The notes below the pieces were generated by a model. It ran no database searches. It had not been told where the DNA came from and saw only the letters and a program-made list of their open reading frames with translations. Positions 6,216 through 29,072 of a stretch of DNA of 36,365 bases are shown here, piece by piece. Each line of letters opens with the position of its first letter. Positions within the stretch are counted from its first letter, which is position 1. This DNA comes from an uncultured Clostridia bacterium (GTDB taxonomy: Bacteria > Aerophobota > Aerophobia > Aerophobales > B3-G15). Where the stretch lies: NCBI GenBank assembly GCA_964482715.1, contig CAYZYX010000017.1, positions 1 to 36,365 on the forward strand, written 5' to 3'. Position numbers and translations under genes: made by a program.

Positions 6216-6256
6216 AGTTTAATTCTCCTTGACTTTTTGTCAAATATATTTAAGCT
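6216..6256. promoter_or_regulatory. Overlapping divergent promoters
   Basis: Plus strand TTGACT(6229)-N16-TAAGCT; minus strand TTGACA(6243)-N16-TAAACT. The two -35 boxes form the palindrome TTGAC-N5-GTCAA. Confidence 0.5.
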
Positions 6257-6303
6257 ATATTGCTAATAAAAATATCGATTCTTTCTTTTTGAGGAGGAGA
6301 AAA

Positions 6304-7341
6304 ATGAATGTCTGGGCGAAATTTTCTGACGGTTTAGAATTCAGTGAAGAGATGTTTAAAACACTTGTAAGGTATGCTCCAGATGGAAATCTGGATGTTT
6401 TCGCTTCTGATCAGCACAGTTCTTATCTTAAACTGACTTCGGCTTATTTAAAACATATTGGAGAAAGCAGATCCGCCAATGATGAAGACGTAAGAGAAGT
6501 TGCCAGAAGGTTCGCTCGAGCCCTTTCAGGTATTCCTTCAGCTGCTCTTTTTAACCATCTTGCTTATCAAAGTCCTGGTTTCAGAGAACTCTTAGGTGAA
6601 AACACCATGCTTATTGGAAGACTTGAAGATACTAACACCATACCCGTTGATGGAGGAAGAGGACAGCTTGCCCATTTAGCTTTGGAACCGGAAAACTGTG
6701 TAGATCAAGTTGATGCTTTCAAAACTCTTGTCAAATTAGATCCTGACCACAAGGAGAGCTGGGAGCGTAACCTCGAGTGGCTGCAGGGAGTTTTTGAAAG
6801 GTGCCAAAGACTCGGCAAAATGCTATTTAATGAAACTCTGATGTTTCAAAGACCCGGTGAATCAAAGGTAGAATTTGCCAAAAGACTTCCCGACGGGCTT
6901 GTTAAAATTGCCGAAGCTTTTAGTCCCTACGGACACTTTTATAAAACTCAGGTTCCTGTTTTATGGGTTGAGGAAAATGGAAAAACGACGAAAATAAGTA
7001 GTGTAAAGACAGTAAGAGATACTGCAGAAGCAATGTTTAAGGCCAGCAACAGACCTATGCTTCTTTTGAGTGCAGCAGTTGACTTTGAGCAGTATGCAGC
7101 TCAGTATGCAATTGTGGCAGATCTTTTTGCAGGCCCCATGTGTGGTAGAGCCTATTTTAAAGAAGCCTTTACTGACCCCGAAACCAGGGATTGGGACAGC
7201 CTGGAAACATCTTTTAAAAGGATTGCTCTTCCTCGAATAATACACATCAAGAATCTGGCCAAGGTAATGAGTCAACCCTGGTGGCACAGATTTACCTGGA
7301 TATCCGATGAAGCTAAAACTCTATTAAAAGATAAATCCTGA
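6304..7341 (+). CDS. Divergent class I aldolase, LacD (tagatose-1,6-bisphosphate)/YihT-like
   Basis: FASDQHSS, FKTLVKLDPD, FYKTQVP (Schiff-base Lys position), LLLSAAV, GPMCGRAYF. Start moved to ATG 6304 behind GAGGAGG. Confidence 0.7.
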   Translation: MNVWAKFSDGLEFSEEMFKTLVRYAPDGNLDVFASDQHSSYLKLTSAYLKHIGESRSANDEDVREVARRFARALSGIPSAALFNHLAYQSPGFRELLGENTMLIGRLEDTNTIPVDGGRGQLAHLALEPENCVDQVDAFKTLVKLDPDHKESWERNLEWLQGVFERCQRLGKMLFNETLMFQRPGESKVEFAKRLPDGLVKIAEAFSPYGHFYKTQVPVLWVEENGKTTKISSVKTVRDTAEAMFKASNRPMLLLSAAVDFEQYAAQYAIVADLFAGPMCGRAYFKEAFTDPETRDWDSLETSFKRIALPRIIHIKNLAKVMSQPWWHRFTWISDEAKTLLKDKS

Positions 7342-7811: not shown

Positions 7812-7989
7812 CTGACATCTGGAACATTTTTTATCTATAGCTTCTCCTGTAGGCCCCTGAGGTGCCTTGCGTAGAAACTTCTTTTCGACGGCAAAGCTAC
7901 GCCAGCGAGAATATTTTCCCCCTCAATTTACCCTGAGATACCCGGGAGCCTGAAGCGAAAGGTACAGGTAAAAACTGTCCTAATTTCAG
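7812..7989. mobile_element. MITE-like non-coding element, about 178 bp, with imperfect terminal inverted repeats
   Basis: Left end CTGACATCTGGAACATTTTT...AGGCCCCTGAGGTGCCTTGC. Right end reverse complement CTGAAATTAGGACAGTTTTT...AGGCTCCCGGGTATC. Both match the repeats at 20871 and 36192. No clear target duplication. Confidence 0.55.
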
Positions 7990-7999
7990 CCCAGTATAT

Positions 8000-8027
8000 T
8001 TGACAGGTTTTTTTAACCTGGTATGAT
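8000..8027 (+). promoter_or_regulatory. Promoter of the LacI operon
   Basis: TTGACA-N16-TATGAT with extended -10 TG. Confidence 0.75.
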
Positions 8028-8056
8028 TAAAACGATTTAAACTTAAATCGTTTTAA
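8027..8056. promoter_or_regulatory. Tandem LacI-type operators
   Basis: TTAAAACGATTTAA-AC-TTAAATCGTTTTAA: a perfect 14-bp inverted repeat, each arm a CG-centred pseudo-palindrome, between the -10 box and the LacI start codon. Confidence 0.75.
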
Positions 8057-8057
8057 A

Positions 8058-9068
8058 ATGAACAGTATAAAAATAAAGGATGTTGCCAGGTTAGCTGGTG
8101 TTTCTCCAGCCTGTGTGTCTCTGGTTCTAAATAACAAGCCATATGTTAGCCCGGAAACCAGAGAAAAGATTTACAAGGCTATTAAAAAGCTCAATTATCG
8201 CCCCAATATCATTGCCAGAAGTCTCAGAAAAAAAGAAACCACTACCATAGGTCTTGTGCTTCCCGATATAACTAATCCCTTCTTTCCTGAAGTAGCAAGA
8301 GGTGTAGAAACGAGAGCAAAGGAATACGGCTTTTCTGTAATTTTATGTAATAGTGATGCAGATCCGGTTCTGGAAAAGGAATCAATAGAGATACTGCTGG
8401 CTAAACAGGTAGACGGTCTTATCCTAACTTCAGCCCACAGAAAAAATGACTTAATTGAAAATCTCGAAAAAGATATTCCTGTAGTGCTCGTAAATAGAGA
8501 GCTCTTTCCGGGGAAATTTGATTTTGTAGGAATTGATAACCTGAATTCTGCCAAAACAATGGTCAGACATCTTCTAAAACTCGGACATAAAAGGATAGCT
8601 TTTATAAAAGGAGAACCGGCCTCGTCAGCAAGTGCAGATAGGTATAAAGGATACATATTGGCCTTGAAAGAAGCTGGTATAATCTACTCAAAGAATCTGG
8701 TTAAAACAGGTTACCTCAAATATGAAGGTGGTTACCAGGCTATCCAGTCTTTACTTGCCAGCTCCTCTCCCCCTACAGCTATTTTCTGTGCTAACGATAT
8801 GATGGCCTTGGGGGCTCTGGATGCCTGTAAAGACAAGGGGATAAAAGTTCCTCAAGATGTGGCCATCGTCGGATTTGACGATATCTGGCTTGCCTCTCTC
8901 AAAGGCATTGAACTTACCACCATCAGACAGCCAAGATATTTAATGGGGGTGAATGCGGTTGACCTTTTGATTGAAAGAATAACCGGTAAAAGAGATAAGA
9001 TTAAGAGACTGATACTTCCATCTGAACTTGTGGTAAGAAAAACATGTGGAACAGATTACAGGAAATAA
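8058..9068 (+). CDS. LacI-family transcriptional regulator
   Basis: IKDVARLAGVSPACVSLVLN HTH, YRPNIIARSL hinge helix, IFCANDMMALG, VGFDD. Confidence 0.96.
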   Translation: MNSIKIKDVARLAGVSPACVSLVLNNKPYVSPETREKIYKAIKKLNYRPNIIARSLRKKETTTIGLVLPDITNPFFPEVARGVETRAKEYGFSVILCNSDADPVLEKESIEILLAKQVDGLILTSAHRKNDLIENLEKDIPVVLVNRELFPGKFDFVGIDNLNSAKTMVRHLLKLGHKRIAFIKGEPASSASADRYKGYILALKEAGIIYSKNLVKTGYLKYEGGYQAIQSLLASSSPPTAIFCANDMMALGALDACKDKGIKVPQDVAIVGFDDIWLASLKGIELTTIRQPRYLMGVNAVDLLIERITGKRDKIKRLILPSELVVRKTCGTDYRK

Positions 9069-9069
9069 A

Positions 9070-10656
9070 ATGGTAGAATTTCTAACTTCAAAAGATGTTG
9101 TGAACTGGATAGAAGATAATTCAACCCTCGCTCTTGTGGGCTTTACTATGCTGGGAGTTGCTGAGGATATACTGCGAGAGATTGAAAGGAGGTTTCTCGA
9201 ATCCGGAACTCCCAGGAATTTGACTGTTATTCATGCTGCAGGACAAAGCGATACTCAAAACGGAATAGAACACTTGGCCCATGAGGGACTTTTAAAAAGA
9301 ATCATAGGCTCTCACTGGGGACTTGCCCCCCGCATGGCAAGACTTATTTATCAGAATAAAGTTGAGGCCTATGCACTTCCTCAGGGAAGAATTGCCAACC
9401 TTTACAAGGTAATGGCTGGAGGAGCCCCTGGTCTTTTATCCCCTATAGGTCTTGATACATACGTGGATCCTGATATTGGGGGCGGAAAAATAAACGATAA
9501 AACAAAAAAATGTGAAAATATAGTGGAAAAAATCAAAATAGATGGTAAAGATTATCTATTCTATAAAAAAATACCTATAGATTTTGTGTTGATCAGAGGA
9601 ACGGTCGCTGATGAAAAAGGGAATATATCAATGAAAGAAGAGGCAGTTAAACTGGAAGCTCTCTCAGCAGCTCTTGCCTGTCATCATTTTGGAGGGAAAG
9701 TCATTGCTCAAGTAAAATGGATTACTACAAAAGGGTCCCTCCATCCAAAGGAAATAACCCTTCCTGGTATATTTGTTGATGCGGTCGTCATGGCAAAAAA
9801 TCAGGAAGAAACTCACCGTCAGACTGCAACCAGTTTTTATGACCCCTCTCTCTGCGGTGAGATAAAAACTCCAGAAATGACTTTTCAACCCATCCCTCTG
9901 AGTATTCGCAAGATAATAGGACGAAGAGCCATTATGGAGATCGCTCCAGGTGCCATAGTCAATCTGGGAACAGGTATTCCAGGTGATACAATTGGACCCA
10001 TCGCTGCCGAAGAGGGAATACTTTCGGAGTTTATTCTAACTGTCGAATCCGGGACCATTGGTGGTATACCAGGAGGAGGAATCGATTTTGGTGTAAGTAG
10101 AAATCCCGAAGTTATAATAAATCACATGGATCAGTTTGATTTTTACACCGGGACAGGCGTAGATATAACTTTTATGGGAGCAGCCGAAATTGATCAGGAG
10201 GGAAACGTTAATGTAAGTAGGTTCGGGTCGCGAGTTGCAGGATGTGGAGGGTTTATTGATATCACTCAAATGGCAAAGAAAGTGGTTTTTTGTTTTACTT
10301 TTACTGTAGGAGAAATCTCCGCAGATTATTCCAGTGGAAAACTAAAGATTCTGCAAGACGGTAAACCTTTAAAATTCGTACCTCAGGTAAATCATATTAC
10401 TTTTAGTGGAAAACGGGCAAAAAATGTGGGTCAGAAGGTCGTCTATGTTACCGAAAGAGCTGTATTTGAATTAAGGCCGGAAGGCTTCACACTGATTGAA
10501 ATTGCACCCGGAGTAGATCTCAAAAAGGACATACTGGATAAAATGTCATTTGAACCAAAAATAGCGCCAGAACTAAGAGAAATGAACTCAAGAATTTTTC
10601 TGGAAGAACCAATGGGCATAGCCACAAATTTTTTAACTTATGAAAAGATAAGATAA
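9070..10656 (+). CDS. Family I acyl-CoA transferase, single chain (YdiF/propionate CoA-transferase-like)
   Basis: IIGSHWG, VNLGTGIP, catalytic TVESG, GNVNVSRFG, GCGGFIDITQ, YVTERAVF. ATG 9070 preferred to GTG 9046. Confidence 0.92.
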   Translation: MVEFLTSKDVVNWIEDNSTLALVGFTMLGVAEDILREIERRFLESGTPRNLTVIHAAGQSDTQNGIEHLAHEGLLKRIIGSHWGLAPRMARLIYQNKVEAYALPQGRIANLYKVMAGGAPGLLSPIGLDTYVDPDIGGGKINDKTKKCENIVEKIKIDGKDYLFYKKIPIDFVLIRGTVADEKGNISMKEEAVKLEALSAALACHHFGGKVIAQVKWITTKGSLHPKEITLPGIFVDAVVMAKNQEETHRQTATSFYDPSLCGEIKTPEMTFQPIPLSIRKIIGRRAIMEIAPGAIVNLGTGIPGDTIGPIAAEEGILSEFILTVESGTIGGIPGGGIDFGVSRNPEVIINHMDQFDFYTGTGVDITFMGAAEIDQEGNVNVSRFGSRVAGCGGFIDITQMAKKVVFCFTFTVGEISADYSSGKLKILQDGKPLKFVPQVNHITFSGKRAKNVGQKVVYVTERAVFELRPEGFTLIEIAPGVDLKKDILDKMSFEPKIAPELREMNSRIFLEEPMGIATNFLTYEKIR

Positions 10657-10671
10657 ACTGAGGAAGGGAAA

Positions 10672-11409
10672 ATGCGACTTAAAGACAAAAAAGCGGTGGT
10701 TACCGGTGCAGCTCGAGGAATAGGGAAAGCTATTTCCCTGAAATTAGCCCAGGAAGGTGCGGACGTGATAGTTGCTGACAAAAACAGGGAAGGTGTGGAA
10801 CAGGTTGCCAGTCAGATTGAAAAAATGGGAAGAAAAGGATATCCCTTAAAAGTTGATGTTTCTAAAAGACAGGAAGTGGAAAAAATGATTATTTCAGCTA
10901 AAGAAAAAATGGGAAGGATAGATATTTTGGTGAATAATGCTGGAATAAATCGAGACGCAATGTTACATAAAATGACCGACGAAAACTGGCACGAAGTTAT
11001 AGCCGTAAACCTCACAGGTGTGTTTTTCTGTATACGAGAAGCTGCAAAAGTTATGCGAGATCAAGGATATGGAAGAATAATCAACATTTCCTCGGCAAGC
11101 TGGATGGGAAATATCGGTCAGGCAAACTATTCTGCGGCAAAAGCAGGAGTGGTGGGACTTTCCAAAACAGCAGCCAGAGAACTTGCCAGAAAAGGTATCA
11201 CGGTAAATGTGGTATGTCCGGGATTTATAGATACTGAAATGACTCGAGCTGTTCCTGAAAAAATCCGTACCAAGATTATAGAGAAAATTCCTATGGGTGA
11301 GGTTGGAAAGCCGGAAGATGTGGCAAATATGGTTGCTTTCCTGGCATCAGATGAGGCAAGATACGTTACAGGAGCTATCATAGATGTTGGAGGTGGACTG
11401 GTACTTTAG
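10672..11409 (+). CDS. SDR oxidoreductase, FabG/3-hydroxyacyl-CoA dehydrogenase-like
   Basis: TGAARGIG, NNAG, YSAAK. Asp after beta-2 (IVAD) suggests NAD preference. Confidence 0.92.
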   Translation: MRLKDKKAVVTGAARGIGKAISLKLAQEGADVIVADKNREGVEQVASQIEKMGRKGYPLKVDVSKRQEVEKMIISAKEKMGRIDILVNNAGINRDAMLHKMTDENWHEVIAVNLTGVFFCIREAAKVMRDQGYGRIINISSASWMGNIGQANYSAAKAGVVGLSKTAARELARKGITVNVVCPGFIDTEMTRAVPEKIRTKIIEKIPMGEVGKPEDVANMVAFLASDEARYVTGAIIDVGGGLVL

Positions 11410-11418
11410 GAGGAAAAA

Positions 11419-12648
11419 ATGCAAGATAAAAAAGTTGCCATTTTATCTGCAGTTCGCACGCCAGTAGGTAAATTTGGTATGTCTCTTGCCGGGATCTCCC
11501 CCCTTGATCTCGGGGCTCTGGTAGTTAGAGAAGCCATCAGAAGAGCCGGAATTTTACCAGAAGAGGTTGATAGAGTAGTTGTTGGAGAAAATATACAAAC
11601 CACTCCCCGTGGCGATCCCGCAAGGCATATAGCTTTAAGAGCAGGACTTCCTGTTGAAGTTGACGATTATTCCATTAATATGAACTGCTCCTCAGGAATG
11701 AGAGCTGTTGTTTGTGCTGCCCAGGATATAATTCTTGGAGAGCGAAAGTTGATTGTGGCCTGCGGAACCGAATGTATGAGTCAGGCTCCTTTTCTGCTGG
11801 AAGGCATCAGATGGGGCATTAAGCTGGGGGGGAAAAAACTTGTAGACTTTCTGGCCGATTATCTATTGGTAGATGCCGGTCCGATGGCCGAAACTATTGC
11901 TGAGAGGTATAAAATAACTCGAAAAGAACAGGATGAATTTGCATATCTTAGCCATATGAAAGCGATTAAAGCTATTGATCAGGGAAAATTTGAAGAAGAA
12001 ATAGTTCCTGTCCCCGTGAAAATCTTGAAAGAAAAAGCCCTGAAAGATAGTGTCATGGAAGATAATCTTGTGCCACTACCAGATGAGGTTAAAGGAGAAG
12101 ACCTTTTTAGAGTGGACGAACATCCCCGCCGGGATACTTCGCCTGAGAAATTATCAAATCTAAAACCAGTTTTCAAAAAAGGAGGCACTGTGACAGCAGG
12201 CAATGCCTCAGGAATAAACGATGCAGCTGCAGCTCTGGTTCTTGCCAGCAATGATAAATGGAAAAAGTTGAAAAAAAAGCCTGTTGCCTATCTTGCTGCC
12301 TGGGAGGCCGCAGGAGTTGAGCCGGAAATCTTCGGGATAGGACCAGTTGCAACAGTAAAAAAACTTCTGGATAAAACAGGACTTGATTTAGAAAAAATAG
12401 ACCTTTTTGAAATTAATGAAGCATTCGCTGCATCAACAATTGCCTGTATAAAAGAACTTAAAATTGATCCTGGAAAAGTTAACGTCAATGGAGGGGCAAT
12501 TGCGCTGGGTCATCCTGTGGGGGCCACGGGAATTATAATGATGGTTAAACTCATTTTTGAATTAAGAAGAAGGAAGGCAAAATACGGAATTGCCACCATG
12601 TGTGTTGGTAGTGGTCAGGGAATGGCAGTTTTAATTGAAATACCTTAA
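11419..12648 (+). CDS. Thiolase (acetyl-CoA C-acyltransferase family)
   Basis: NMNCSSG, GTVTAGNASGINDAA, NEAF, GHPVGATG, CVGSGQG. Confidence 0.95.
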   Translation: MQDKKVAILSAVRTPVGKFGMSLAGISPLDLGALVVREAIRRAGILPEEVDRVVVGENIQTTPRGDPARHIALRAGLPVEVDDYSINMNCSSGMRAVVCAAQDIILGERKLIVACGTECMSQAPFLLEGIRWGIKLGGKKLVDFLADYLLVDAGPMAETIAERYKITRKEQDEFAYLSHMKAIKAIDQGKFEEEIVPVPVKILKEKALKDSVMEDNLVPLPDEVKGEDLFRVDEHPRRDTSPEKLSNLKPVFKKGGTVTAGNASGINDAAAALVLASNDKWKKLKKKPVAYLAAWEAAGVEPEIFGIGPVATVKKLLDKTGLDLEKIDLFEINEAFAASTIACIKELKIDPGKVNVNGGAIALGHPVGATGIIMMVKLIFELRRRKAKYGIATMCVGSGQGMAVLIEIP

Positions 12649-12684
12649 GTATTTTTTCCAGAAAGACCCGGGGGAATAAGAAAA

Positions 12685-14547
12685 ATGGGATTTGGATTTT
12701 TGGGAAGACTGGCTCGCATTGATCTAAACAAAAAAAGGGTAGAAATTGAGGACATTCCTGAAGACGATTGTAAAAAATACCTTGCTGGTAGTGGTTTAGC
12801 TGCAAGGATTCTCTACAGAGAGTTTGATAGTTCACTTTCCCCTCTGGATCCAGAAAGTCCTCTGGTCATTATAGCTGGCCTGCTTACCGGCACTTCTGTC
12901 CCCTGTGCCTGTAAAACCTCTGTATGTGCACGTTCTCCTGAAACAGAAATCTGGGGCGAGGCCACCGTGGGAGGATATTTTGGGGCAGAACTAAAGAAAA
13001 CCGGTTACGATGGATTAATAATTACTGGAAAATCTGAAATTCCGGTTTACCTGTGGATTAATAATGAGAAAATAACAATAAAACCGGCAAAGCACGTCTG
13101 GGGACTTGATACTTTCACCACAACAGAGAAACTCTTGAAGGAAACCCATCTTAAAGCCAGAGTGGCCTGTATAGGTCCTGCAGGAGAGAATCTCTGTGCA
13201 ATTTCCTCAATTATCATTGATGGATGGGAATCAAGGGCTGCGGCAAGAGGTGGCTTAGGAGCTGTTATGGGGACAAAAAATCTTAAAGCCATTGTGGTTA
13301 AAGGAGAAAAATATCCGGAGATTAAAGATAAAAAAATGCTTGCCAGATCCATAAGAGAGACTCTACCTTTTCTTCAGCAAAATACTAAGGGACTTAGCGA
13401 TTTCGGGACAGCTGTTGGAATGTATTCTGTGGTAGAACCCTCGGGAGACCTTCCTATTAAGAACTGGCTTCAGGGAAGCTGGACAGAAGGAGCAGAGAAA
13501 ACCACCGGCGAAACTATGGTGAAAAAATTTCTGGAAAGACATTATGGTTGTTTTGGTTGTCCCATCAAATGTGGAAAAATCATCAAAATAAATACCCGAA
13601 ACAGACAGCGACTGATGCATGGACCCGAATATGAATCAAATGCAGCTCTGGGCGCATTGTGTCTAAACGACGATTTGAAAAAAATATCCCTTGCCAATGA
13701 ACTTTGTAACATGTATGGTCTTGATACTATTTCCACGGGCTCGACCATTGCTTTCGCTATAGAAGCTTTTGAGAGGAAGATAATATCCACGCTTGATACG
13801 GATGGAATTGAGCTTAAGTGGGGGGATGGAGATGCAATAATACAAATCGTTGACAAAATAGCTAAAAGAGAAGGGATTGGTGATATTCTCGCCGATGGCA
13901 CAAAAAAGGCAGCGGAAAGATTGGGTAAGAATTCTATAGAGTTTTCTATTCAGGTTAAAGGATTGGAACTTCCTCTGCATGATCCTCGTGCTTATGTTAG
14001 CATGGCTCTGACTTATGCTACCGGAAATAGAGGTGCCTGTCATCTTGATTCCCTCTCCTATACCTTTGAGGGTGGCCCTGATGTTAAGGGAATTCCTTAT
14101 AACCACTCTTTGTCTCCCCACCAGTCTGATGGAAAAGTTGAGCTGGTAATAAGGCTACAGAATTATATGGCTTCGTTAAATGCCCTTGGTCTTTGTAAAT
14201 TCCTGTTTTGTGGAAAAATAGGACCCGCTAAAATCGCAACCTGGACCAGTTTGGTTACTGGTTGGAAGTTAAAGGGAGAAGAGCTTTTGGAAATAGGAGA
14301 TAGATTGTTTAATCTGAAACGCCTTTATAACTACAGGCTGGGTATTACTCGTAAAGATGACTTTCTTCCTCCTCGACTTTTGACCTGGGATAGAAAGGAA
14401 GGTGGATCAAAAGGTGTTTTGCCTCATCTTGGCAAAATGCTTGGCGATTACTACAGGCTTCGGGGATGGAGTGAAGATGGTATTCCCACAACTGAAAAGT
14501 TAAGACAGTTAAAACTTGAAAAAAATATAAAGAGAGGTAGGATATAG
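12685..14547 (+). CDS. aor: Aldehyde:ferredoxin oxidoreductase family (W/Mo-pterin)
   Basis: IGPAGEN, AARGGLGAVMGTKNLKA, CFGCPIKC, GPEYE, GLDTIS, DPR, RGACH, YYRLRGW. Confidence 0.93.
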   Translation: MGFGFLGRLARIDLNKKRVEIEDIPEDDCKKYLAGSGLAARILYREFDSSLSPLDPESPLVIIAGLLTGTSVPCACKTSVCARSPETEIWGEATVGGYFGAELKKTGYDGLIITGKSEIPVYLWINNEKITIKPAKHVWGLDTFTTTEKLLKETHLKARVACIGPAGENLCAISSIIIDGWESRAAARGGLGAVMGTKNLKAIVVKGEKYPEIKDKKMLARSIRETLPFLQQNTKGLSDFGTAVGMYSVVEPSGDLPIKNWLQGSWTEGAEKTTGETMVKKFLERHYGCFGCPIKCGKIIKINTRNRQRLMHGPEYESNAALGALCLNDDLKKISLANELCNMYGLDTISTGSTIAFAIEAFERKIISTLDTDGIELKWGDGDAIIQIVDKIAKREGIGDILADGTKKAAERLGKNSIEFSIQVKGLELPLHDPRAYVSMALTYATGNRGACHLDSLSYTFEGGPDVKGIPYNHSLSPHQSDGKVELVIRLQNYMASLNALGLCKFLFCGKIGPAKIATWTSLVTGWKLKGEELLEIGDRLFNLKRLYNYRLGITRKDDFLPPRLLTWDRKEGGSKGVLPHLGKMLGDYYRLRGWSEDGIPTTEKLRQLKLEKNIKRGRI

Positions 14548-14672
14548 ATAAAATTCAGTATTTAAGAATTTAAAAATAAAAATTTAAAAAGGGGGGAGAG
14601 TATCAAAATGCAAGGAGGTGAAAAATGGGGTAGCGGAAAAGGAGAAACCTTTACTAACAGGGAGGTAATAAG

Positions 14673-16106
14673 TTGAATAAAAAGGCTATTGCGTTTTTAG
14701 TTACACTTATTTTGGGGTTTTGTCTCGTAGGAGGAGCAATAGCTGGGGCTGAAGAAAAACTCATCCCTTTAACCGTGGTGGGAGATGCCGGACATAATCA
14801 AAAACCCTGGGAGTGGTATAAAGAAGACTTCAAGAAATTATATGGTGTGGATTTAAAAATTGTGGGAGTTCCTTTTGCTGAAGTTTACGAAAAACTAAAA
14901 ATTGAGTTTGTTACTCATACCGGTGCTTATGACATTGTTACCTTTTATCCAAAATACATAGGCGACTTTGCCGGAAATGGTTATCTTTATCCTTTAGACG
15001 AATTCATAGCCAAATTGGATCCCAATTTAGCTGATGTTACACCGGGGTACAGGGATTTTTACTGCAAATACAAAGGGAAAATATATGCTCTGCCTTACGA
15101 CGGAGATGTCTTGAATCTTTATTATCGCAAAGACCTTTTTGAAAATCCTGAAGAAAAAGCTGCTTTCAAGGCCAAATATGGATATGAACTCAGACCTCCT
15201 TTAACCTGGGATGAGTATCTGGATGTGGCCGAGTTTTTCACCAGGAAAAAGGGCCAGAAACTTGCCGGTAAGGTCCTTGACAGGGACTTTTATGGGACAG
15301 CTTTTTATGGTCAAAGAGACTGGTGCTGGGCCTGGTGGGGTAACCGTTTTGCTGCTTATGGAGGAGTTTATTTTGACGAAGAAACCATGAAGCCCATGAT
15401 TAACTCTCCAGCTGGAGTGAAAGCCCTCGAGGATATGTTAAAAACCATGAAATACTCTCCTCCTGATGTCTTAGCCTATGGATATGAAGAATTAAAAGAT
15501 GTGTTCTTAAACGGTGAAACGGCCATGGTTATTCAGTGGCCCTGTGTTGGTAAAAAAGGTGCTGATCCTGCCCAATCCAAAATAGTAGGAAAAATTGGTG
15601 TTACTACTGTCCCTGGTGTTCTGAAAGATGGCAAATTATATCGTCGGGCCATGATGCCCTGTGGACGTGTCCTGGGTATAGCTAAGGATTCTGAAAACCC
15701 CTGGAAAGCCTATCAGGTAATATGGCATGTTTCTGTAAAAACCAGCATAGACGATGTGTCTACCGCTAAAACCGGACTTGATCCGTACAGATACTCCCAT
15801 TTTCAACACCCGAAAGAGTACGAAATGTTTCCCACCATTAAGGATGCTGAAATATACCTTAAAGGTGTTCAATCCAACCTGGTAGTTGGCTATCCTGAAA
15901 TGGTAATTCCTGGAGCCGAACAATACGAGGACGTTCTGGGAAGAAAAATCACCGAAGCTTTAAGTGGTGCCAAAAGTCCAAAACAGGCTCTTGATGAGGT
16001 CGCCAAAGAATGGGATAAGATAACTGACAGGTTTGGTCGAGAAAAACAGAAGAAGCTCTATCAAGAACTTGTGGCAGGTTGGAGAGCAGCTGGTCTATGG
16101 GAGTAA
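14673..16106 (+). CDS. Carbohydrate (CUT1) ABC substrate-binding protein
   Basis: TTG start after GGAGG, signal peptide, IYALPYDGD, LYYRKDLF, PLTWDEY. Confidence 0.92.
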   Translation: MNKKAIAFLVTLILGFCLVGGAIAGAEEKLIPLTVVGDAGHNQKPWEWYKEDFKKLYGVDLKIVGVPFAEVYEKLKIEFVTHTGAYDIVTFYPKYIGDFAGNGYLYPLDEFIAKLDPNLADVTPGYRDFYCKYKGKIYALPYDGDVLNLYYRKDLFENPEEKAAFKAKYGYELRPPLTWDEYLDVAEFFTRKKGQKLAGKVLDRDFYGTAFYGQRDWCWAWWGNRFAAYGGVYFDEETMKPMINSPAGVKALEDMLKTMKYSPPDVLAYGYEELKDVFLNGETAMVIQWPCVGKKGADPAQSKIVGKIGVTTVPGVLKDGKLYRRAMMPCGRVLGIAKDSENPWKAYQVIWHVSVKTSIDDVSTAKTGLDPYRYSHFQHPKEYEMFPTIKDAEIYLKGVQSNLVVGYPEMVIPGAEQYEDVLGRKITEALSGAKSPKQALDEVAKEWDKITDRFGREKQKKLYQELVAGWRAAGLWE

Positions 16107-16115
16107 AAAATTTAA

Positions 16116-16149
16116 AGGGAGCAGGACTTTGAATCCTGCTCCCTCATTT
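16116..16149 (+). terminator. Intercistronic stem-loop after the SBP gene (partial terminator or mRNA stabiliser)
   Basis: AGGGAGCAGGA-N7-TCCTGCTCCCT, an 11-bp perfect stem followed by a short T run. Confidence 0.75.
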
Positions 16150-16161
16150 TGACCATTACCA

Positions 16162-17046
16162 ATGACAAAAAAATCTTGGTTAAGTACAGAAAAATGGATG
16201 TCTTTTCTTTTTATTCTCCCCTGTGTTGTAATTCTGCTTGTTATTTCTGTCTTTCCCCTTATTTACTCTCTCTGGCTTAGTTTTAATTCCTGGGAATTGG
16301 CTATGGGATTTCCTCCTGAATTTATTGGACTGGCAAATTATATAAGATTGTTTCAAGAAGCAAGATTCTGGAACGCCATGTTAAATATTGGTAAAGTTCT
16401 TCTATTTGGAGTGGGTTCTCAGTTTCTCATAGGTCTTGCTCTGGCCATCCTGCTGGACAGGGCTATCCGTGGAAAAACACTTTTGACAACTCTTTTTCTT
16501 CTTCCTATGGTTATAGCACCTGTAGTGGTGGGGTGTACCTGGAGGCAAATATATCACTATCAGTATGGTCCTTTGAATTACATTCTTCAAAAAATGAGTT
16601 TTGCACCAATTACCTGGCTTTCCAATCCCAGATTTTCTCTTCCTTCAATTATAATAAGCGATACCTGGGAATGGACCCCTTTTATGATGGTGGTTATTTT
16701 AGCCGGGCTACAATCGATACCTGATCAGCTACGGGAAGCAGCAGCAATAGATGGAGCATCAAGCTGGAAGATATTTACAAACATACTCTTTCCGCTATTA
16801 AAACCTGTCATGATTGTAGCTATTCTAATAAGGGTTATGGATGCCTTTAAATTATTTGATCTGGTTGTATTGCTCACTCAGGGTGGTCCAGGAGAGTCTT
16901 CGGAAACTATCACCTATTATAACTATCTTGTAGGATTTAAACACTTCAGTCTGGGATATGCTGCAGCCTTGTCCTATGTTCAACTTGTGGTTATCATTGT
17001 GATTGCTAACTTTTTCTTAAGGTTCCTAAAAGAAAAAGAGGTATAA
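16162..17046 (+). CDS. Carbohydrate ABC permease (MalF-like)
   Basis: FIGLANY, WEWTPF, EAAAIDGAS. Confidence 0.94.
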   Translation: MTKKSWLSTEKWMSFLFILPCVVILLVISVFPLIYSLWLSFNSWELAMGFPPEFIGLANYIRLFQEARFWNAMLNIGKVLLFGVGSQFLIGLALAILLDRAIRGKTLLTTLFLLPMVIAPVVVGCTWRQIYHYQYGPLNYILQKMSFAPITWLSNPRFSLPSIIISDTWEWTPFMMVVILAGLQSIPDQLREAAAIDGASSWKIFTNILFPLLKPVMIVAILIRVMDAFKLFDLVVLLTQGGPGESSETITYYNYLVGFKHFSLGYAAALSYVQLVVIIVIANFFLRFLKEKEV

Positions 17047-17048
17047 CT

Positions 17049-17885
17049 ATGGGCAAGTGGTTTCAAAGAAGAAGTGAGTATGTGGTGATAATACTTTTCT
17101 TTGCAATAGGATTTTTACTTTTGATTTTCCTCAGTCCTATGCTCTGGATGTTTTTGACTTCTTTTAAAGATAGAGGCGAATTCTTCACCTATCCACCAGT
17201 TTTTATTCCAAAAAGCCCGGATTTTTCTGCTTTTTTTCATGGCTTAGAACTGGGAGGAGCAAAAGGAATCATGGATACTCTCATAATTGCCGGGTCCTGC
17301 ACACTGATATCGTTAGGAGTTGGAGCACTTGCTGCTTATAGTTTAGCCCGGTTTAGAATTGGAGGTAAGAATTTAGCTTTCTGGATTTTATCCATCAGAA
17401 TGCTCCCTCCTATTGCTATTGTTTTACCATTGTTCATCCTTTATCAATCTCTGAGGTGGCTGGACACTTATCAGTCCCTTATCATTACTCACACAGTAAT
17501 GAATATTCCCTTTGCAGTGTGGATACTTAAAGGTTTTTTTGAAGAACTTCCTTCTGATCTTGAAGACTCCGCTCTTGTAGATGGATGTAATCGCTTTCAA
17601 GCTTTCTCCAGAATAGCACTTCCTCTGGTTGCACCAGGACTGGTAGCCACCGCTCTTTTTTGCTTTATCTTTTCCTGGAACGAGTTCTTATTTGCTCTTA
17701 TCCTCACTCGTTCGCATGTGAGACCCCTGACGGTTGTCATAACCAGTCTGATTGGCGGACATGAAATCCTCTGGGCAGAAATTTCGGCTGTTGGAACAAT
17801 GGCAAGTATCCCTGTGATTGTCCTGGCAATATTCCTGCAGCGTTACCTTGTAAGAGGCCTCACCCTGGGTGCAGTCAAAGGATAA
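17049..17885 (+). CDS. Carbohydrate ABC permease (MalG-like)
   Basis: AAYSLAR, EDSALVDGC, FSWNEFL, RGLTLGAVKG. Confidence 0.94.
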   Translation: MGKWFQRRSEYVVIILFFAIGFLLLIFLSPMLWMFLTSFKDRGEFFTYPPVFIPKSPDFSAFFHGLELGGAKGIMDTLIIAGSCTLISLGVGALAAYSLARFRIGGKNLAFWILSIRMLPPIAIVLPLFILYQSLRWLDTYQSLIITHTVMNIPFAVWILKGFFEELPSDLEDSALVDGCNRFQAFSRIALPLVAPGLVATALFCFIFSWNEFLFALILTRSHVRPLTVVITSLIGGHEILWAEISAVGTMASIPVIVLAIFLQRYLVRGLTLGAVKG

Positions 17886-21976: not shown

Positions 21977-22507
21977 ATGAAGAATAAAATAAAAATAGAA
22001 AACAGGAAAGAATTAATAGAAAAAGCCTATAAATTGGGATTTGAATATGAAAAATCAAGCCACTACTGTGCTCAATGTGTGGTAGCGACACTTCAGAATA
22101 TTCTGCAGATTAAAGATGAGTCTCTCTTTCGGGCATCTTACCCCCTCTCAGGAGGGCTGGGAAGTACTACTCAAGGAACCTGCGGTGCTCTTTCGGGGGG
22201 AGCCATGGTGCTGGGTTATCTTTACGGACGAGAGAGACACGAGTTTGAGAGAGGTATTTCCAATAAAAAAGCGGCTCTTCTTTCAAAAAGACTTTACGAA
22301 AGATTTGTTCAGGAATATGGAAGTTGTATCTGTAGGGATATTCAAACAAGGCTCTTCGGACGCAGTTTTGATTTTTGGAATGAAGACGATAAGAAACTCT
22401 TTGAAGAAGCGGGAGGTCACAAAGATAAATGTCCAGCCGTTGTTGGTAAAGCTTGTGTCTGGACCCTTGAAATTATCTTAAGTGAAGAAGGAGATGATTC
22501 CGTGTAA
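21977..22507 (+). CDS. C_GCAxxG_C_C family putative redox protein
   Basis: YCAQCV, TCGALSGG, GSCICRDI, DKCPAVV. Confidence 0.9.
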   Translation: MKNKIKIENRKELIEKAYKLGFEYEKSSHYCAQCVVATLQNILQIKDESLFRASYPLSGGLGSTTQGTCGALSGGAMVLGYLYGRERHEFERGISNKKAALLSKRLYERFVQEYGSCICRDIQTRLFGRSFDFWNEDDKKLFEEAGGHKDKCPAVVGKACVWTLEIILSEEGDDSV

Positions 22508-22545
22508 TTTTCAATTTAAGTCATCCACCTTCAGGTCCTTTAAAA

Positions 22546-22576
22546 TTGACTTAAGGGGGAATATCTGATATAAATT
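22546..22576 (+). promoter_or_regulatory. Candidate promoter directly before larB
   Basis: TTGACT-N17-TATAAA(TT) with TG extension; ATG follows within about 7 nt. Confidence 0.45.
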
Positions 22577-22581
22577 TATCA

Positions 22582-23346
22582 ATGAGAAAGGATTTTATCA
22601 GAGAGATTCTTGAAGAAGTCAAACAAAACAAGTTGTCTGTTGATGAAGCTCTGGAAAAATTAAAAACTCTTCCTTTTGAAGATTTGAAATTCGCCAAAAT
22701 TGACCACCACCGTTATCTGAGAAGAGGATTTCCAGAAGTTATTTTTTGTAGTGGAAAAACGATCTCCCAGATAACAGATATAGCAAAAAGCCTCTGGGAA
22801 AAAAGCAACTTTTTAATTGCCACCCGAGCATCCCACGAAATTTATGAGGCTATCAAGAAAGTTACTCCAGAAGCTGTATATTATCCAGAGGCCAGAATAG
22901 TTGTGGCTGGAAAATGTAAGAAGATAAATCATCCGGAAAAAATAATTCTGGTAGTAACAGCGGGAACAGGTGATATTCCCGTTGCTGAAGAAGCCAAAGT
23001 TACTGCTCAGATGATGGGAAACAGAGTTGAGACACTTTATGATGTTGGGATTGCTGGTATTCATCGTTTATTCCAAAACCTGGGACTTGTGAGAAGTGCA
23101 AATGTTTTAATTGTAGTTGCAGGAATGGAAGGAGCACTTCCTGGAATGGTAGCAGCTATGGTTGACAAACCGGTTATTGCCGTTCCTACCAGCATCGGGT
23201 ATGGAACAAACTTTGGTGGTCTGTCAGCCCTTTTAAGCATGTTAAACAGCTGCAGCCCGGGAATAGCAGTTGTAAATATAGATAATGGTTTTGGAGCAGG
23301 ATACCTGGCCTCTCTGATTAATCAGATGAATAGGGTGGAAAAATGA
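22582..23346 (+). CDS. larB: Nickel-pincer cofactor biosynthesis protein LarB
   Basis: AKIDHHRYLRRGFPEVIF, AGTGDIPVAEEA, DVGIAGIHRL, AGMEGALP, VPTSIGYG, VVNIDNGFGAG. Confidence 0.95.
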   Translation: MRKDFIREILEEVKQNKLSVDEALEKLKTLPFEDLKFAKIDHHRYLRRGFPEVIFCSGKTISQITDIAKSLWEKSNFLIATRASHEIYEAIKKVTPEAVYYPEARIVVAGKCKKINHPEKIILVVTAGTGDIPVAEEAKVTAQMMGNRVETLYDVGIAGIHRLFQNLGLVRSANVLIVVAGMEGALPGMVAAMVDKPVIAVPTSIGYGTNFGGLSALLSMLNSCSPGIAVVNIDNGFGAGYLASLINQMNRVEK

Positions 23347-24521
23347 AGATTGCCTATTTTGACTGTTTTTCTGGAATCAGTGGTGACATGATTCTGGGAG
23401 CTTTGATCGATGCTGGTCTTACTCCAGAAAATCTCACTCGAATAATCTCTGAGCTTAATTTAAGAGATTGCAGGATAGAGATTGAAAAAACGAAAAAAGG
23501 TTCCATAAGCGCCACCAGAGTAAATATTATTGTTCCACCAAAAGAAAGAAAATCACCTGCTACTTTCCTTAATCTCCTCGACAGTCTGGATTTACCTTTA
23601 CCACAAAAAGAAAAAAGTAAAAATATTTTTCTCTCTATAGCCAGAGCCGAAGCCCAGATTCATCGTGAGAATATTGAGGATCTTCACTTACATGAACTTG
23701 GTTCTCTGGATACTTTAATTGATATAGTTGGAGCAGTTATAGGTATACATCAAATGGGTATTAAAAAAATATATGCCTCGCCGGTAAACCTGGGCAGAGG
23801 TATAGTTGATACTGCCCATGGATTACTTCCCGTTCCCGCTCCAGCTACTCTTGAGATACTTAAAGGAGCCCCAGTTTACTCTGGCGAAGTAGAGGCTGAA
23901 TTGACCACTCCCACAGGTGCTGCTATCTTGATGGGGTTTTCTCCTGTATTTGGACCAATTCCCTGCATGAAAATTGAAAAAATAGGATACGGTGCGGGAC
24001 AAAAAGAGCTTCCCTTCCCCAATCTGCTTCGTATCATTATAGGAAAGGAAAAAAGTCAATTTAATGAGGACTGGGTTATTTTGCTGGAAACGAATATAGA
24101 CGATATGAATCCCGAATTTTATGAATATATAATAGATTCTCTTTTTAAATGTGGTGCTTTAGATGTTTTTTTAACACCGGTTCAAATGAAAAAAAATAGG
24201 CCCGGGATAATGCTTTCTGTTATTTGCCAGGAGGAAAAACAGGACAAGCTCCTTGAAACAATATTTAAGGAAACCACCACACTTGGGGTTAGAGTATCCC
24301 GAATAAAGCGTCGTGTAATAGAGCGAAAAATTCAGAAGTTTACCACCTCCCTGGGTGAAATTAAAGTAAAGGTCAGTATGTTAAATGATAAAATTGTTAA
24401 TCTCTCTCCCGAATACGAAGATTGCAAGCAAATTGCTCTGGAAAAGAAGTTACCATTAAAAGAAGTTTATGAAAGGATAAAAAAGGAGGTGAGCTCAAAG
24501 TTACACGAACCCTTTCAGTAG
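23343..24521 (+). CDS. larC: Nickel-pincer cofactor nickel insertase LarC
   Basis: YFDCFSGISGDM, HLHELGSLD, PVPAPAT, ELTTPTGAA, ETNIDD, MKKNRPG, ETTTLGVR, PEYEDC. Confidence 0.95.
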   Translation: MKIAYFDCFSGISGDMILGALIDAGLTPENLTRIISELNLRDCRIEIEKTKKGSISATRVNIIVPPKERKSPATFLNLLDSLDLPLPQKEKSKNIFLSIARAEAQIHRENIEDLHLHELGSLDTLIDIVGAVIGIHQMGIKKIYASPVNLGRGIVDTAHGLLPVPAPATLEILKGAPVYSGEVEAELTTPTGAAILMGFSPVFGPIPCMKIEKIGYGAGQKELPFPNLLRIIIGKEKSQFNEDWVILLETNIDDMNPEFYEYIIDSLFKCGALDVFLTPVQMKKNRPGIMLSVICQEEKQDKLLETIFKETTTLGVRVSRIKRRVIERKIQKFTTSLGEIKVKVSMLNDKIVNLSPEYEDCKQIALEKKLPLKEVYERIKKEVSSKLHEPFQ

Positions 24522-24563
24522 TGGGTCAGTATTTATTTAAAACTTATTGGGAGGAGTAAAATC

Positions 24564-25487
24564 ATGAAGCCAGAAAAACCTCCAAAGATCTCTATCGGAA
24601 GCTGGGCCTATGCTATTGGTCCCTACCAGGATAAGCCTGTTCCCCTTCCCGAAGTTGCTCAAAAATTGAAAGAGCTGGGGTTTAATGGACTTGAACTTGG
24701 AGGGTTTAAACCTCACGCTCACCCAGATCTTTATCCGGAAAAAAGGGATAGAGAAAAACTGGTGGAAATGTTAAAGGAAAACGGACTTGAGGTTCCAGCT
24801 TATGCTGCTGATCTCTGGTCATTTCCTTTTGCTGAAGGGGATCCTGAAGTGGTGAAAAAATACAGAGAAATGTTTAAAAAAAGTGTAGAATTTTGTGCTG
24901 ACTGTAACATTCCTGCTATTCGAGTTGACACAGTTACTCACACTCCCTTCCCTGAGCACCTTGATTATAAGACCACCTGGGAAAGGATAAGAGAAATGTT
25001 CAGCTGGTGCTCAGATGTTGCAGGCGAAAAGGATCTTCTTGTGGTCTGGGAATTTGAGCCAGGATTTATTATTAATAAGCCCCATGAAGTGAAGAAAATG
25101 GTCGAGGAGGTTAATCGTCCCAATTTTAAGATTCTCTTTGATACCTGCCATGCTCACATGTGTTCAGTACAGGCTGCCAAGCAAACTCCTCCTCTTGACA
25201 AACTAAAAGGTGGAGCAGTAGAATTTGCCAGACTACTTGAAGGCCAAATTGGACACGTCCACATAATCGATTCTGACAATACCCTCCATGACAATGATAC
25301 AAGTACTCATGCACCTCTTGGAACAGGTGTTCTGGACTTCAAAAATCTACTCCCTGCTATTCTCGAATCAGGGTACAAATCTGAATGGTGGTCCATTGAT
25401 CTTTGTTTCTGGCCTAATGCCTGGGAAGTAACGGAAGACTGCAAGAGATACCTTGATAGAATTTTTGAAGAGTTAGGCTGGAAATAA
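24564..25487 (+). CDS. TIM-barrel sugar (phosphate) isomerase/epimerase, AP-endonuclease-2 / ketose 3-epimerase-like
   Basis: GFNGLEL, WEFEPG, FDTCHAH, HVHIIDSD, HAPLGTGVLDF. Confidence 0.88.
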   Translation: MKPEKPPKISIGSWAYAIGPYQDKPVPLPEVAQKLKELGFNGLELGGFKPHAHPDLYPEKRDREKLVEMLKENGLEVPAYAADLWSFPFAEGDPEVVKKYREMFKKSVEFCADCNIPAIRVDTVTHTPFPEHLDYKTTWERIREMFSWCSDVAGEKDLLVVWEFEPGFIINKPHEVKKMVEEVNRPNFKILFDTCHAHMCSVQAAKQTPPLDKLKGGAVEFARLLEGQIGHVHIIDSDNTLHDNDTSTHAPLGTGVLDFKNLLPAILESGYKSEWWSIDLCFWPNAWEVTEDCKRYLDRIFEELGWK

Positions 25488-25505
25488 GTAAAGAAGGAGG
25501 CTTAA

Positions 25506-26585: not shown

Positions 26586-26734
26586 ACAGGGCATTCACTC
26601 CGGTTTCGGAAAAATTCCTGTTAGACAGCCGGGTGCGTATACCTTGCTTTGGAGGAAAGATGATCCCCTTCCCGTTTAGTGTTTAAGTTTTATCTTTGTT
26701 ATAAGACTTTTTCCCAAATCTGGAATATTCAAAA

Positions 26735-26779
26735 TTGACATATAAAATTAGTATAGTAAAATAAAAAATGAACCATTTT
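26735..26779 (+). promoter_or_regulatory. Promoter of the monosaccharide ABC operon with a small palindrome at the start site
   Basis: TTGACA-N16-TAAAAT (26735-26762); AAAATG-AAC-CATTTT at 26765-26779. Confidence 0.65.
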
Positions 26780-26900
26780 ACTCTAAATTATCGGGGCCTG
26801 GGAAAGGAGGTGAGAGTTGAAAAATTTATTCTTGTAAAAAGGCTCCGTTTGAGTAAATGGAGTAAGTTTTAAGTGCATATTAGCTTAAAGGGAGGAGGAA

Positions 26901-27926: not shown

Positions 27927-27963
27927 ATCCCGGTCAAAATTGTGTGGTGAGTGAGTAAAATAA

Positions 27964-28020
27964 GAGGGACGCGCTGTGCTTAAAAAGTTTTAAACTTACA
28001 ATGAGTACAGCGCGTCCCTC
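27964..28020 (+). terminator. Long intercistronic hairpin after the SBP gene
   Basis: GAGGGACGCGCTGTGCT...AGTACAGCGCGTCCCTC, a 17-bp stem with one G-U pair and no U tract. Confidence 0.7.
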
Positions 28021-28052
28021 AAAGTGGGTAAAGGAGCGTCTAAATACAGGCT

Positions 28053-29042: not shown

Positions 29043-29072
29043 TTGTTATAATTTCGTGATAAGGAGTTTGTA

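Follow-up and report, generated by a model that had tools for sequence, protein, structure and literature searches.

We analyzed a window of 36,365 nucleotides (nt), namely contig C17 of a 1.57-Mb metagenome-assembled genome (MAG; 94.7% complete) from an uncultured marine sediment bacterium whose closest named relatives are Candidatus Aerophobetes MAGs. Eight open reading frames (ORFs) on the plus strand at 8058-17885, in agreement with the co-directional unit delimited in an earlier sequence-only reading of this DNA, encode a LacI-family repressor (LacI), a CoA-transferase (CoAT), a short-chain dehydrogenase/reductase (SDR), a thiolase (Thl), a tungsten-type aldehyde:ferredoxin oxidoreductase (AOR), and the solute-binding protein (SBP) and two permeases of an ATP-binding cassette (ABC) importer. 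With a probability of roughly 0.55, we consider these genes to be a LacI-repressed operon for the kinase-independent oxidative catabolism of free 2-deoxy-D-ribose (hereafter deoxyribose) in a strict anaerobe. The sequence-only reading had proposed that a 2-deoxy-aldose is oxidized, activated with CoA, oxidized at C3 and thiolyzed without a kinase, and this proposal is now supported by the SBP clade, by homologous CoA genes in enterobacteria and by a variant operon in a related MAG (G020). Its observation that the eight genes include no kinase, aldolase, glycosidase, acyl-CoA dehydrogenase or enoyl-CoA hydratase was borne out by Pfam and NCBIfam searches. Its description of the pathway as undescribed holds for the AOR and the ABC front end, but not for the CoA steps, for which there is a Klebsiella precedent.

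In the route that we propose, the ABC system would bring deoxyribose into the cell, where the AOR would convert the aldehyde form of the sugar to 2-deoxyribonate and reduce ferredoxin. The CoAT would then form the CoA ester, with glyceryl-CoA or acetyl-CoA as the donor, and the SDR, presumably NAD-dependent, would oxidize C3, a step that may precede or follow ester formation. Thl would split the 3-oxo ester into acetyl-CoA and glyceryl-CoA, the CoAT would free glycerate from the latter while loading the next deoxyribonate, and a MOFRL-type glycerate kinase encoded elsewhere in the genome would send the glycerate into glycolysis. Deoxyribose as the substrate, its oxidation by the AOR, the choice of CoA donor and what becomes of glycerate are inferred. 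By a rough estimate, such a route would yield about 2 ATP per deoxyribose with none spent at entry, as compared to 2-3 ATP by the kinase/aldolase route.

The three CoA genes place the operon next to a known pathway for deoxyribonate. The CoAT is a fused family-I enzyme that matches Escherichia coli YdiF over its full length (2ahu, E 8e-133), with which it shares the fused alpha-beta architecture and the catalytic Glu of the LTVE(T/S)G motif (YdiF position 333). It does not belong to the Ato/SCOT type, as it is fused and YdiF-like, reaches only 78-82 bits with AtoD/ScoA-type models and lies in a sugar-regulon context. Among 251 enterobacterial genomes, 13 encode a CoAT that is 48-51% identical to that of the window and a few encode one at 45-48%, whereas the YdiF group stands at 42-44% and forms a separate clade. 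In the four top-tier enterobacterial loci that were fetched, all four present CoAT, SDR and Thl in the window's order, with identities of 48-51%, 55-58% and 45-46%, respectively; the window SDR is thus closer to the enterobacterial cluster SDR than to its best paralogue in its own genome (49.6%). The flanks of this triad contain an AMP-binding CoA synthetase, two major facilitator superfamily (MFS) genes, an SMP-30 lactonase and a CdaR regulator in one genome (G276), a CoA synthetase, one MFS gene and CdaR in another (G240), and an adjoining glycerate kinase in two more (G100 and G109). In a tree of 29 CoAT sequences, the Aerophobetes enzymes group with those of the enterobacterial clusters and a long branch separates YdiF. 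The intake of this tree was limited to ORFs of at least 450 aa with a GGF(I/V)D motif, which 29 of 39 sources provided; this filter removed the middle tier and also several of the distant loci.

The SDR scores above the FabG cut-offs and contains the TGxxxGIG, NNAG, Ser and YxxxK elements, while an Asp residue after strand 2 (Asp36) suggests that NAD is used and, hence, that the role is oxidative. Thl scores 438 against a cut-off of 241 with TIGR01930 and contains the Cys, NEAF, GHP and CxGxG motifs. As the genome has only one copy each of CoAT and Thl, the two do not belong to a general system for beta-oxidation or butyrate. Based on homology and gene order, all three enzymes are assigned to the deoxyribonate acyl-CoA route. 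We propose that the CoAT acts as a deoxyribonate:acyl-CoA CoA-transferase, the SDR as a (3-hydroxy)deoxyribonyl-CoA or deoxyribonate 3-dehydrogenase, and Thl as a 3-oxo-deoxyribonyl-CoA thiolase giving acetyl-CoA and glyceryl-CoA.

The reference for this assignment is the Klebsiella michiganensis M5al cluster RS23695-RS23730, which, according to Price et al. (2019, PMC6365646), comprises a CoA synthetase, CoAT, beta-hydroxyacyl-CoA dehydrogenase, thiolase, MFS transporter, lactonase, second MFS transporter and glycerate kinase, and is needed for growth on deoxyribonate, as judged from mutant fitness. The sequence-only reading had pointed to a Klebsiella route of this kind, and the CoAT-SDR-Thl triad indeed recurs in clusters of the layout that this paper describes. 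In that account, the route shares with the window an adjacent CoAT, 3-hydroxyacyl dehydrogenase and thiolase in the same order, and its proposed products are acetyl-CoA and glyceryl-CoA, the latter leading to glycerate. The window operon differs from the cluster so described in that a CoA synthetase, a lactonase and MFS transporters are absent, as is a glycerate kinase within the cluster, and in having a CUT1 ABC system, LacI and AOR instead. Moreover, K. michiganensis is reported there to use the acid without growing on deoxyribose, whereas the window operon is predicted to start from the sugar, and in an anaerobe.

The second line of evidence, the one that points to deoxyribose itself, comes from the transporter. 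An SBP_bac_1 protein accompanied by two BPD_transp_1 permeases identifies it as a CUT1 importer. The operon contains no ATPase gene, and MalK-like candidates are found on contigs C6, C31 and C41; shared ATPases are usual in CUT1 systems. When relatives of the SBP were sought, a single-protein scan gave only two close ones, while an alignment profile gave 79 loci, and neighbors were clustered in 78 of these together with the window. Relatives at 44-85% identity are present in 62 loci, where the commonest non-permease neighbor is a PfkB kinase (38 loci), with a MalK-like ATPase in 22 and, in others, SorC, LacI or DeoR regulators, a small cupin or a mutarotase-like protein.

The kinases found beside these SBPs can be divided by their N-terminal motif, which was readable in 37 of the 38; 20 are of a Met type and 17 of an Asn type. 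We considered a kinase to be DeoK-type if it has Met in the motif GSNM(V/M)D and belongs to a clade with enterobacterial DeoK. Of the 20 Met-type kinases, 18 cluster in a single clade together with six enterobacterial DeoK-context kinases (support 99, FastTree), and enterobacterial RbsK forms a separate clade. The DeoK-context kinases include one from E. coli (D8) whose gene neighbors encode a DeoR regulator, a FucP-like permease and an aldose-1-epimerase. Nine of 61 enterobacterial genomes contain a kinase with the N-terminus MDIAVIGSNMVD that is 44-47% identical to the Atribacterota kinase, as compared to 37-41% for the common enterobacterial RbsK group, whose motif is GSINAD. Tourneux reportedly found in 2000 that replacing Met10 of Salmonella DeoK by Asn raises ribose use. 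The layout of the E. coli D8 kinase locus matches deoQKPX, as described in PMC10926698.

In a quick IQ-TREE tree of the SBPs, the six Aerophobetes proteins fall in a clade of 21 rows (SH-aLRT 96) that includes 11 rows with a linked Met-type, i.e. DeoK-type, kinase and none with an Asn-type kinase; the Asn-type rows lie in other clades. In addition, the Atribacterota SBP loci contain a SorC-type regulator, with DeoC a few genes off (TIGR00126, 235 bits). SorC is the family of the Bacillus subtilis deoxyribonucleoside regulator. The simplest reading of these associations is that the SBP clade, including the window SBP, binds 2-deoxy-D-ribose.

In loci of SBP relatives from other phyla (L056-L128), the transporter genes are preceded by a ureidoglycolate-lyase-like small cupin in 9 loci or by a DUF4432 mutarotase-like protein in 6, either of which may be a pyranase or mutarotase for the sugar. 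An AOR near the SBP in L104 was set aside, being only 36% identical, and a second SBP copy in G020 (L053), with about 650 nt without ORFs upstream, adds nothing. Finally, model TIGR02152 was dropped as a means of telling DeoK from RbsK, since PGAP labels the kinase in the deoQKPX context 'ribokinase' too, and motif and tree were used in its place.

The third component, the AOR, aligns end to end with the Pyrococcus furiosus AOR (1aor, E 2e-134). The CxxCxxxC motif, a fourth Cys, GPEYE and CH are all conserved, and we take the four Cys, the Glu of GPEYE and the His of CH to be the 4Fe-4S and active-site residues, as in the literature on 1aor. Against three solved AORs it scores 452, 438 and 397 bits, as compared to 280 for FOR, 240 for WOR5 and 214 for BamB, and 36 with the GAPOR model; by sequence, it is thus assigned to the AOR branch rather than to any of these. 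As no DeoK-type kinase is found among the readable ribokinase-family hits of 31 genomes of the phylum, the AOR is the only candidate in the operon for converting deoxyribose to deoxyribonate. Given the rest of our reading, we put about even odds on the AOR oxidizing deoxyribose to deoxyribonate with ferredoxin as the acceptor. The genome contains the pterin-synthesis genes MoaC and MoeA. A pterin-dependent (Mo) dehydrogenase of Pseudomonas simiae converts deoxyribose to deoxyribonate in vitro, according to Price et al. (2019, PMC6365646), and the proposed chemistry is, therefore, credible. In five of five relatives in which the contig extends past the AOR, covering both variants of the module, the AOR gene directly precedes that for the SBP.

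The variant module is found in G020 (C35, 772-5519; L043, the same locus as L054), where LacI (68%), AOR (75%), SBP (75%) and the permeases are kept, while CoAT, SDR and Thl are replaced. The replacements are a CoA-acylating dehydrogenase of the methylmalonate-semialdehyde dehydrogenase (MMSDH)/IolA type (511 with TIGR01722, whose cut-off is 448.5), a 144-aa rubrerythrin-like protein, a split transketolase and a zinc-dependent alcohol dehydrogenase (Zn-ADH) of the polyol or threonine-dehydrogenase type. A different contig (C38, L217) carries a second copy, there with a LacI fragment. Here, the AOR would again make 2-deoxyribonate, and the C4 hydroxyl would be oxidized to give the HOCH2-CO-CHOH motif that transketolase needs; transketolase would remove a C2 unit to leave malonate semialdehyde, and the MMSDH-type enzyme would convert this to acetyl-CoA and CO2. 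Such a route through C4 oxidation and malonate semialdehyde is hypothetical, and would be a second, previously undescribed way to use deoxyribonate. Textbook stereochemistry is accommodating: the C3 hydroxyl of a D-erythro sugar would fit a transketolase donor when seen from C5 and would be D-(R), as for FabG/PhaB-type SDRs, when seen from C1. Both back ends would be chemically sensible only for an acid with CH2 at C2.

The pairing of MMSDH with a rubrerythrin-like protein is not peculiar to this operon, being found in other settings as well, in eight of the 31 phylum genomes. A small rubrerythrin-like ORF (56-72% identity) follows MMSDH in seven of the eight loci L214-L221, these being all in which the contig extends past MMSDH, and the surroundings include an iron-dependent alcohol dehydrogenase (Fe-ADH), an SDR, an acetyl-CoA-synthetase-like protein, a transketolase and a distant AOR.

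The sequence-only reading had named conservation of synteny as a check, and the gene set is indeed conserved together in related Aerophobetes MAGs. The full order, from LacI through CoAT, SDR, Thl, AOR and SBP to the two permeases, recurs at 67-80% identity in L011 (the same locus as L044); L003 presents the same order without LacI, the operon of G022 is split across two contigs (L002 and L042), and in L001 the SDR gene has moved upstream of LacI. LacI orthologues at 68-70% are found in L001, L002, L011 and L043, permease 1 orthologues at 69-84% follow the SBP gene in L003, L011, L042 and L043, and permease 2 orthologues stand at 77-94%. Among the 31 phylum genomes, orthologues were counted in seven for the AOR (at least 65% identity), five for CoAT and five for SBP. 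Since contigs from two independent runs bridge 9142-13430 (CoAT to AOR) and 13408-17528 (AOR to permease 2) at no less than 95% identity, each differing in 1-2 letters, the gene order is not an artefact of this assembly.

The coordinates of the operon and its control elements are collected in Table 1. From LacI to permease 2, the intergenic gaps are -23, 15, 9, 36, 125, 55 and 2 nt, a spacing that suggests transcription of the eight genes as one unit; only the gap of 125 nt, between AOR and SBP, has room for an internal promoter. The perfect palindrome directly behind the -10 box is likely the LacI operator. Promoter and palindrome are kept before LacI in the three related loci that cover the region (L001, L002 and L011), where the promoter reads TTGACA...TATTAT and the palindrome differs by 0-2 changes. 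Allowing up to 2 mismatches per half, the palindrome occurs once in the 1.57-Mb genome, and a search by this operator for further regulon members in the genome accordingly gave none. The repressor has an N-terminal LacI helix-turn-helix (HTH) and a periplasmic-binding-protein-like core which, together with the palindrome at the promoter, define it as a member of the LacI/GalR family. Its closest NCBIfam models are RbsR, CytR and CcpA, each under cut-off. The hairpin between the SBP and permease 1 genes may be an mRNA stabilizer or an attenuator.

Table 1. Genes and control elements of the putative deoxyribose operon, with positions as in the window.
Feature	Position	Strand	Basis
Sigma-70-type promoter, TTGACA, 16 nt, extended -10 TG-TATGAT	8000-8027	+	top site of scan, 11/12
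Perfect 24-bp palindrome, likely LacI operator	8030-8053	.	one match in window, 0 in 100 shuffles
LacI-family repressor	8058-9068	+	Pfam LacI HTH, Peripla_BP_1/3
Fused family-I CoA-transferase (CoAT), 536 aa	9046-10656	+	Pfam CoA_trans
FabG-like SDR, 245 aa	10672-11409	+	adh_short
Thiolase (Thl), 409 aa	11419-12648	+	Thiolase_N, Thiolase_C
Tungsten-type AOR, 620 aa	12685-14547	+	AFOR_N, AFOR_C
CUT1 solute-binding protein (SBP), 477 aa	14673-16106	+	SBP_bac_1, SBP_bac_8
Hairpin, 14-bp stem, SBP-permease 1 gap	16115-16145	.	palindromic stem from terminator scan
ABC permease 1	16162-17046	+	BPD_transp_1
ABC permease 2, last gene	17049-17885	+	BPD_transp_1

Several observations weigh against our reading and should be considered together with rival explanations. 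The explanation that survives best, which we nonetheless hold to be unlikely, is that the CoA genes degrade 2-deoxyribonate or a similar 2-deoxy/3-hydroxy acid, that the transporter imports this acid or a precursor, and that the AOR only detoxifies or oxidizes a side aldehyde, be it acetaldehyde from DeoC, glyceraldehyde or glycolaldehyde, as AOR paralogues may do in other operons. Sugar acids are among the cargo that CUT1 systems can carry, most deoxyribose in solution is in a cyclic form, and we know of no AOR-family enzyme with a sugar as its physiological substrate. The window AOR itself falls in a broad-substrate clade. AOR paralogues, of which there are up to 13 per phylum genome (G000-G030), close many unrelated catabolic operons, and adjacency alone is, therefore, weak evidence. 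Beside none of the 78 nearest AORs outside the phylum (38-51% identity) did we find a CoAT or SBP homologue, the only related feature being a 38% thiolase match about 8 kb off in one of these loci, and they lend no independent support to the AOR step. Two DeoC homologues are encoded in the genome as well, the neighbor of one being a non-DeoK PfkB kinase and that of the other a different AOR, and the CoA synthetase, lactonase and in-cluster glycerate kinase of the Klebsiella cluster are absent from the eight genes. On the other hand, the kinases linked to the SBP clade have the free sugar, and not the acid, as their substrate, AOR orthologues of at least 65% identity were seen only in these operons and directly before the SBP gene in both variants, and an operon without a contribution from the AOR would lack a step from aldose to acid.

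A different substrate for the same enzymes, namely D-ribose, another pentose or a 2-deoxy-hexose, is quite improbable, even though parts of the kinase evidence leave room for it. All six SBP-linked kinases that were tested pass the ribokinase model TIGR02152, the 17 Asn-type kinases resemble RbsK in their motif, two Met-type kinases from Bacillota group with the Asn type, and DeoK phosphorylates ribose too. RbsR and CytR are among the closest models of the repressor. In L003, a divergent fucose-isomerase-family gene (8399-9961, 520 aa) takes the place of LacI, 39 nt upstream of CoAT; this counts against deoxyribose, since a 2-deoxy sugar offers nothing for an aldose-ketose isomerase to act on. 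It should also be noted that the trees used were quick or FastTree trees. However, it is other SBP clades that the Asn-type kinases accompany, with none in the Aerophobetes clade, and the CoA genes are homologous to enterobacterial clusters of the deoxyribonate type. From enzyme chemistry, moreover, a 2-hydroxy acid would give neither acetyl-CoA through thiolase nor malonate semialdehyde through transketolase.

It is even less probable that SDR, CoAT and Thl are a ketone-body-type module that uses or makes 3-hydroxybutyrate or acetoacetate, with the ABC and AOR genes as mere neighbors or serving a separate purpose. The SDR does match acetoacetyl-CoA reductase and 3-hydroxybutyrate dehydrogenase models, although under cut-off, and Thl matches acetyl-CoA acetyltransferase models. 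A Bacillota locus (L004) with a related AOR (49%) and a related CoAT (59%) joins Thl-SDR-CoAT to a MaoC hydratase, 3HCDH and, after the AOR, an Fe-ADH. Yet the window genes share a single promoter and operator with tight spacing and are conserved as a whole unit, and the surroundings of their closest enterobacterial homologues include a lactonase, a glycerate kinase and a sugar-acid regulator rather than ato or phb genes. Thl is the only thiolase of the genome, and beside it there is neither a crotonase nor a butyryl-CoA dehydrogenase. Finally, that the AOR runs in reverse as an electron sink, reducing a product acid (glycerate, acetate or deoxyribonate) to the aldehyde with reduced ferredoxin, is hardly credible: AORs catalyze acid reduction in some anaerobes and the Bacillota AOR is followed by an Fe-ADH, but the window operon has no alcohol dehydrogenase, the type of the Zn-ADH in G020 speaks against this role, and the pathway would then have no aldose-to-acid step.

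Deoxyribose as the substrate of an oxidative operon remains the reading that we prefer, and the rest of the genome was considered in its light. A DeoK-type kinase was not found in the genome, the best match being of the Asn type at 39-40%. In the phylum, 15 ribokinase-family hits occur in 12 of the 31 genomes; 12 of these were fetched, 10 were readable and all were Asn-type, so that no Met-type kinase was found among them. Phosphorylated deoxyribose from nucleosides may go through the DeoC homologues. For glycerate, the genome gave no match to a GarK-type kinase (PF02595), and a MOFRL-type candidate is present on contig C19. The sequence-only reading had also placed a Hyd-type complex nearby as an outlet for the electrons, and this was not confirmed: the start of the contig (235-1725) has only two thioredoxin-like 2Fe-2S (NuoE/HydC-like) genes and a HATPase gene, the assembly, at 94.7% completeness, gave no match to an [FeFe]-hydrogenase domain, and NiFe hydrogenases lie on contigs C2 and C6, with NuoF-like genes likewise on contigs other than the window.

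Further observations concern the AOR paralogues and the flanks of the operon. Operons ended by AOR paralogues (L045-L051) are of the MttB/betaine type, encode full beta-oxidation with an electron transfer flavoprotein, or contain an HpcH aldolase, a transketolase with PrpD and a fumarase-like protein, or E1 alpha/beta with a second LacI. Another AOR-containing sugar operon of the same genome (L130, G000:C19:1-8700) encodes a GntR(UTRA) regulator, an AOR paralogue, a 2-hydroxyacid dehydrogenase, a DeoC-family aldolase, an FGGY kinase, a cupin-type GPI and a second FGGY kinase. A homologue of the L003 isomerase lies at C5:10394-11797 of this genome, after a split transketolase, a Gfo/Idh/MocA oxidoreductase and a class-III aminotransferase.

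At 6229-7341 of the window, a 370-aa ORF has no Pfam hit and matches a tagatose-1,6-bisphosphate aldolase model weakly (72 bits against a cut-off of 184). This ORF and an OsmC-like gene were rejected as operon members, as both are upstream of the promoter and the contigs of other runs diverge at about 7920-7984. Such divergence at 7920-7984, just upstream of the promoter, suggests that the operon has different flanks in other populations. Inside the SDR gene, at 10716-10948, a cluster of differences and loose ends in contigs of other runs may reflect exchange with a paralogue. Following permease 2, purM lies on the opposite strand. Farther along, 21977-30959 contains genes for a C_GCAxxG protein and LarB-like (AIRC) and LarC-like (Ni insertion) proteins, followed by a xylose-isomerase-like TIM-barrel protein, a Zn-ADH and a CUT2 ribose-type ABC system, and may be a nickel-pincer-cofactor-dependent module for a sugar or hydroxy acid.

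Compared with described systems, the window AOR resembles the P. furiosus enzyme over its full length and in its conserved cluster and active-site residues, and differs from it in being fixed beside a sugar SBP gene under a sugar-type repressor; to our knowledge, known AORs are broad-range aldehyde oxidizers that are not tied to a sugar operon. With the P. simiae route, as described in PMC6365646, the window operon would share pterin-cofactor oxidation of deoxyribose, an SDR acting at C3 and cleavage to acetyl and glyceryl units. There, however, the enzyme is of the periplasmic Mo type (IorAB/Cox) with cytochrome c, whereas the window is predicted to use a cytoplasmic W-type AOR with ferredoxin, and a thiolase acting on a CoA ester. 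The deoQKPX and DeoC route of Salmonella and E. coli, as presented in PMC10926698, has the same presumed substrate, and relatives of the window SBP stand beside DeoK orthologues in other phyla; the window operon has no kinase, and has ABC uptake in place of a FucP-like symporter. In the literature that we searched, a search that did not extend to supplements, we found no link of AOR or Aerophobetes with deoxyribose, two papers that came up for AOR appearing incidental from title and abstract, and no match for Aerophobetes with 'aldehyde ferredoxin oxidoreductase'. New elements here are the ABC/LacI/AOR front end, a gene set that manages without CoA synthetase and lactonase, the proposed link to ferredoxin in an anaerobe and, as an alternative back end, the transketolase module.

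A further-reaching claim would be that a tungsten AOR paralogue has taken on the role of a cytoplasmic deoxyribose:ferredoxin oxidoreductase, which would make it the first member of the AOR family to act physiologically on a free sugar, and that Aerophobetes own two interchangeable back ends for 2-deoxyribonate, one with CoAT, SDR and Thl and one, not described before, with C4 oxidation, transketolase cleavage and the CoA-acylating, decarboxylating dehydrogenase. We put this forward tentatively, considering it somewhat more apt to fail than to hold. If the AOR does act on the free sugar, it would provide an ATP-free entry to the catabolism of DNA sugar with a gain of low-potential electrons.

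Extracellular DNA steadily supplies sediments with deoxyribose as a carbon source, and the described routes for its use are only the kinase/aldolase route and the aerobic oxidative ones proposed in 2019. If our reading is true, the oxidative route would extend to strict anaerobes, and its acyl-CoA branch, which rests on mutant fitness in one Klebsiella strain, would gain a second and phylogenetically distant instance. The variant operon of G020 offers a testable second pathway, and both the pathway enzymes and the SBP are ordinary soluble proteins amenable to production and assay, the AOR calling for an anaerobic host competent in tungsten use. A substrate would also be assigned to a widespread, unnamed CUT1 SBP family that is found in Atribacterota, Spirochaetota, Chloroflexota, Thermotogota and others, and one of the many AOR paralogues of uncultured anaerobes would be given a physiological role.

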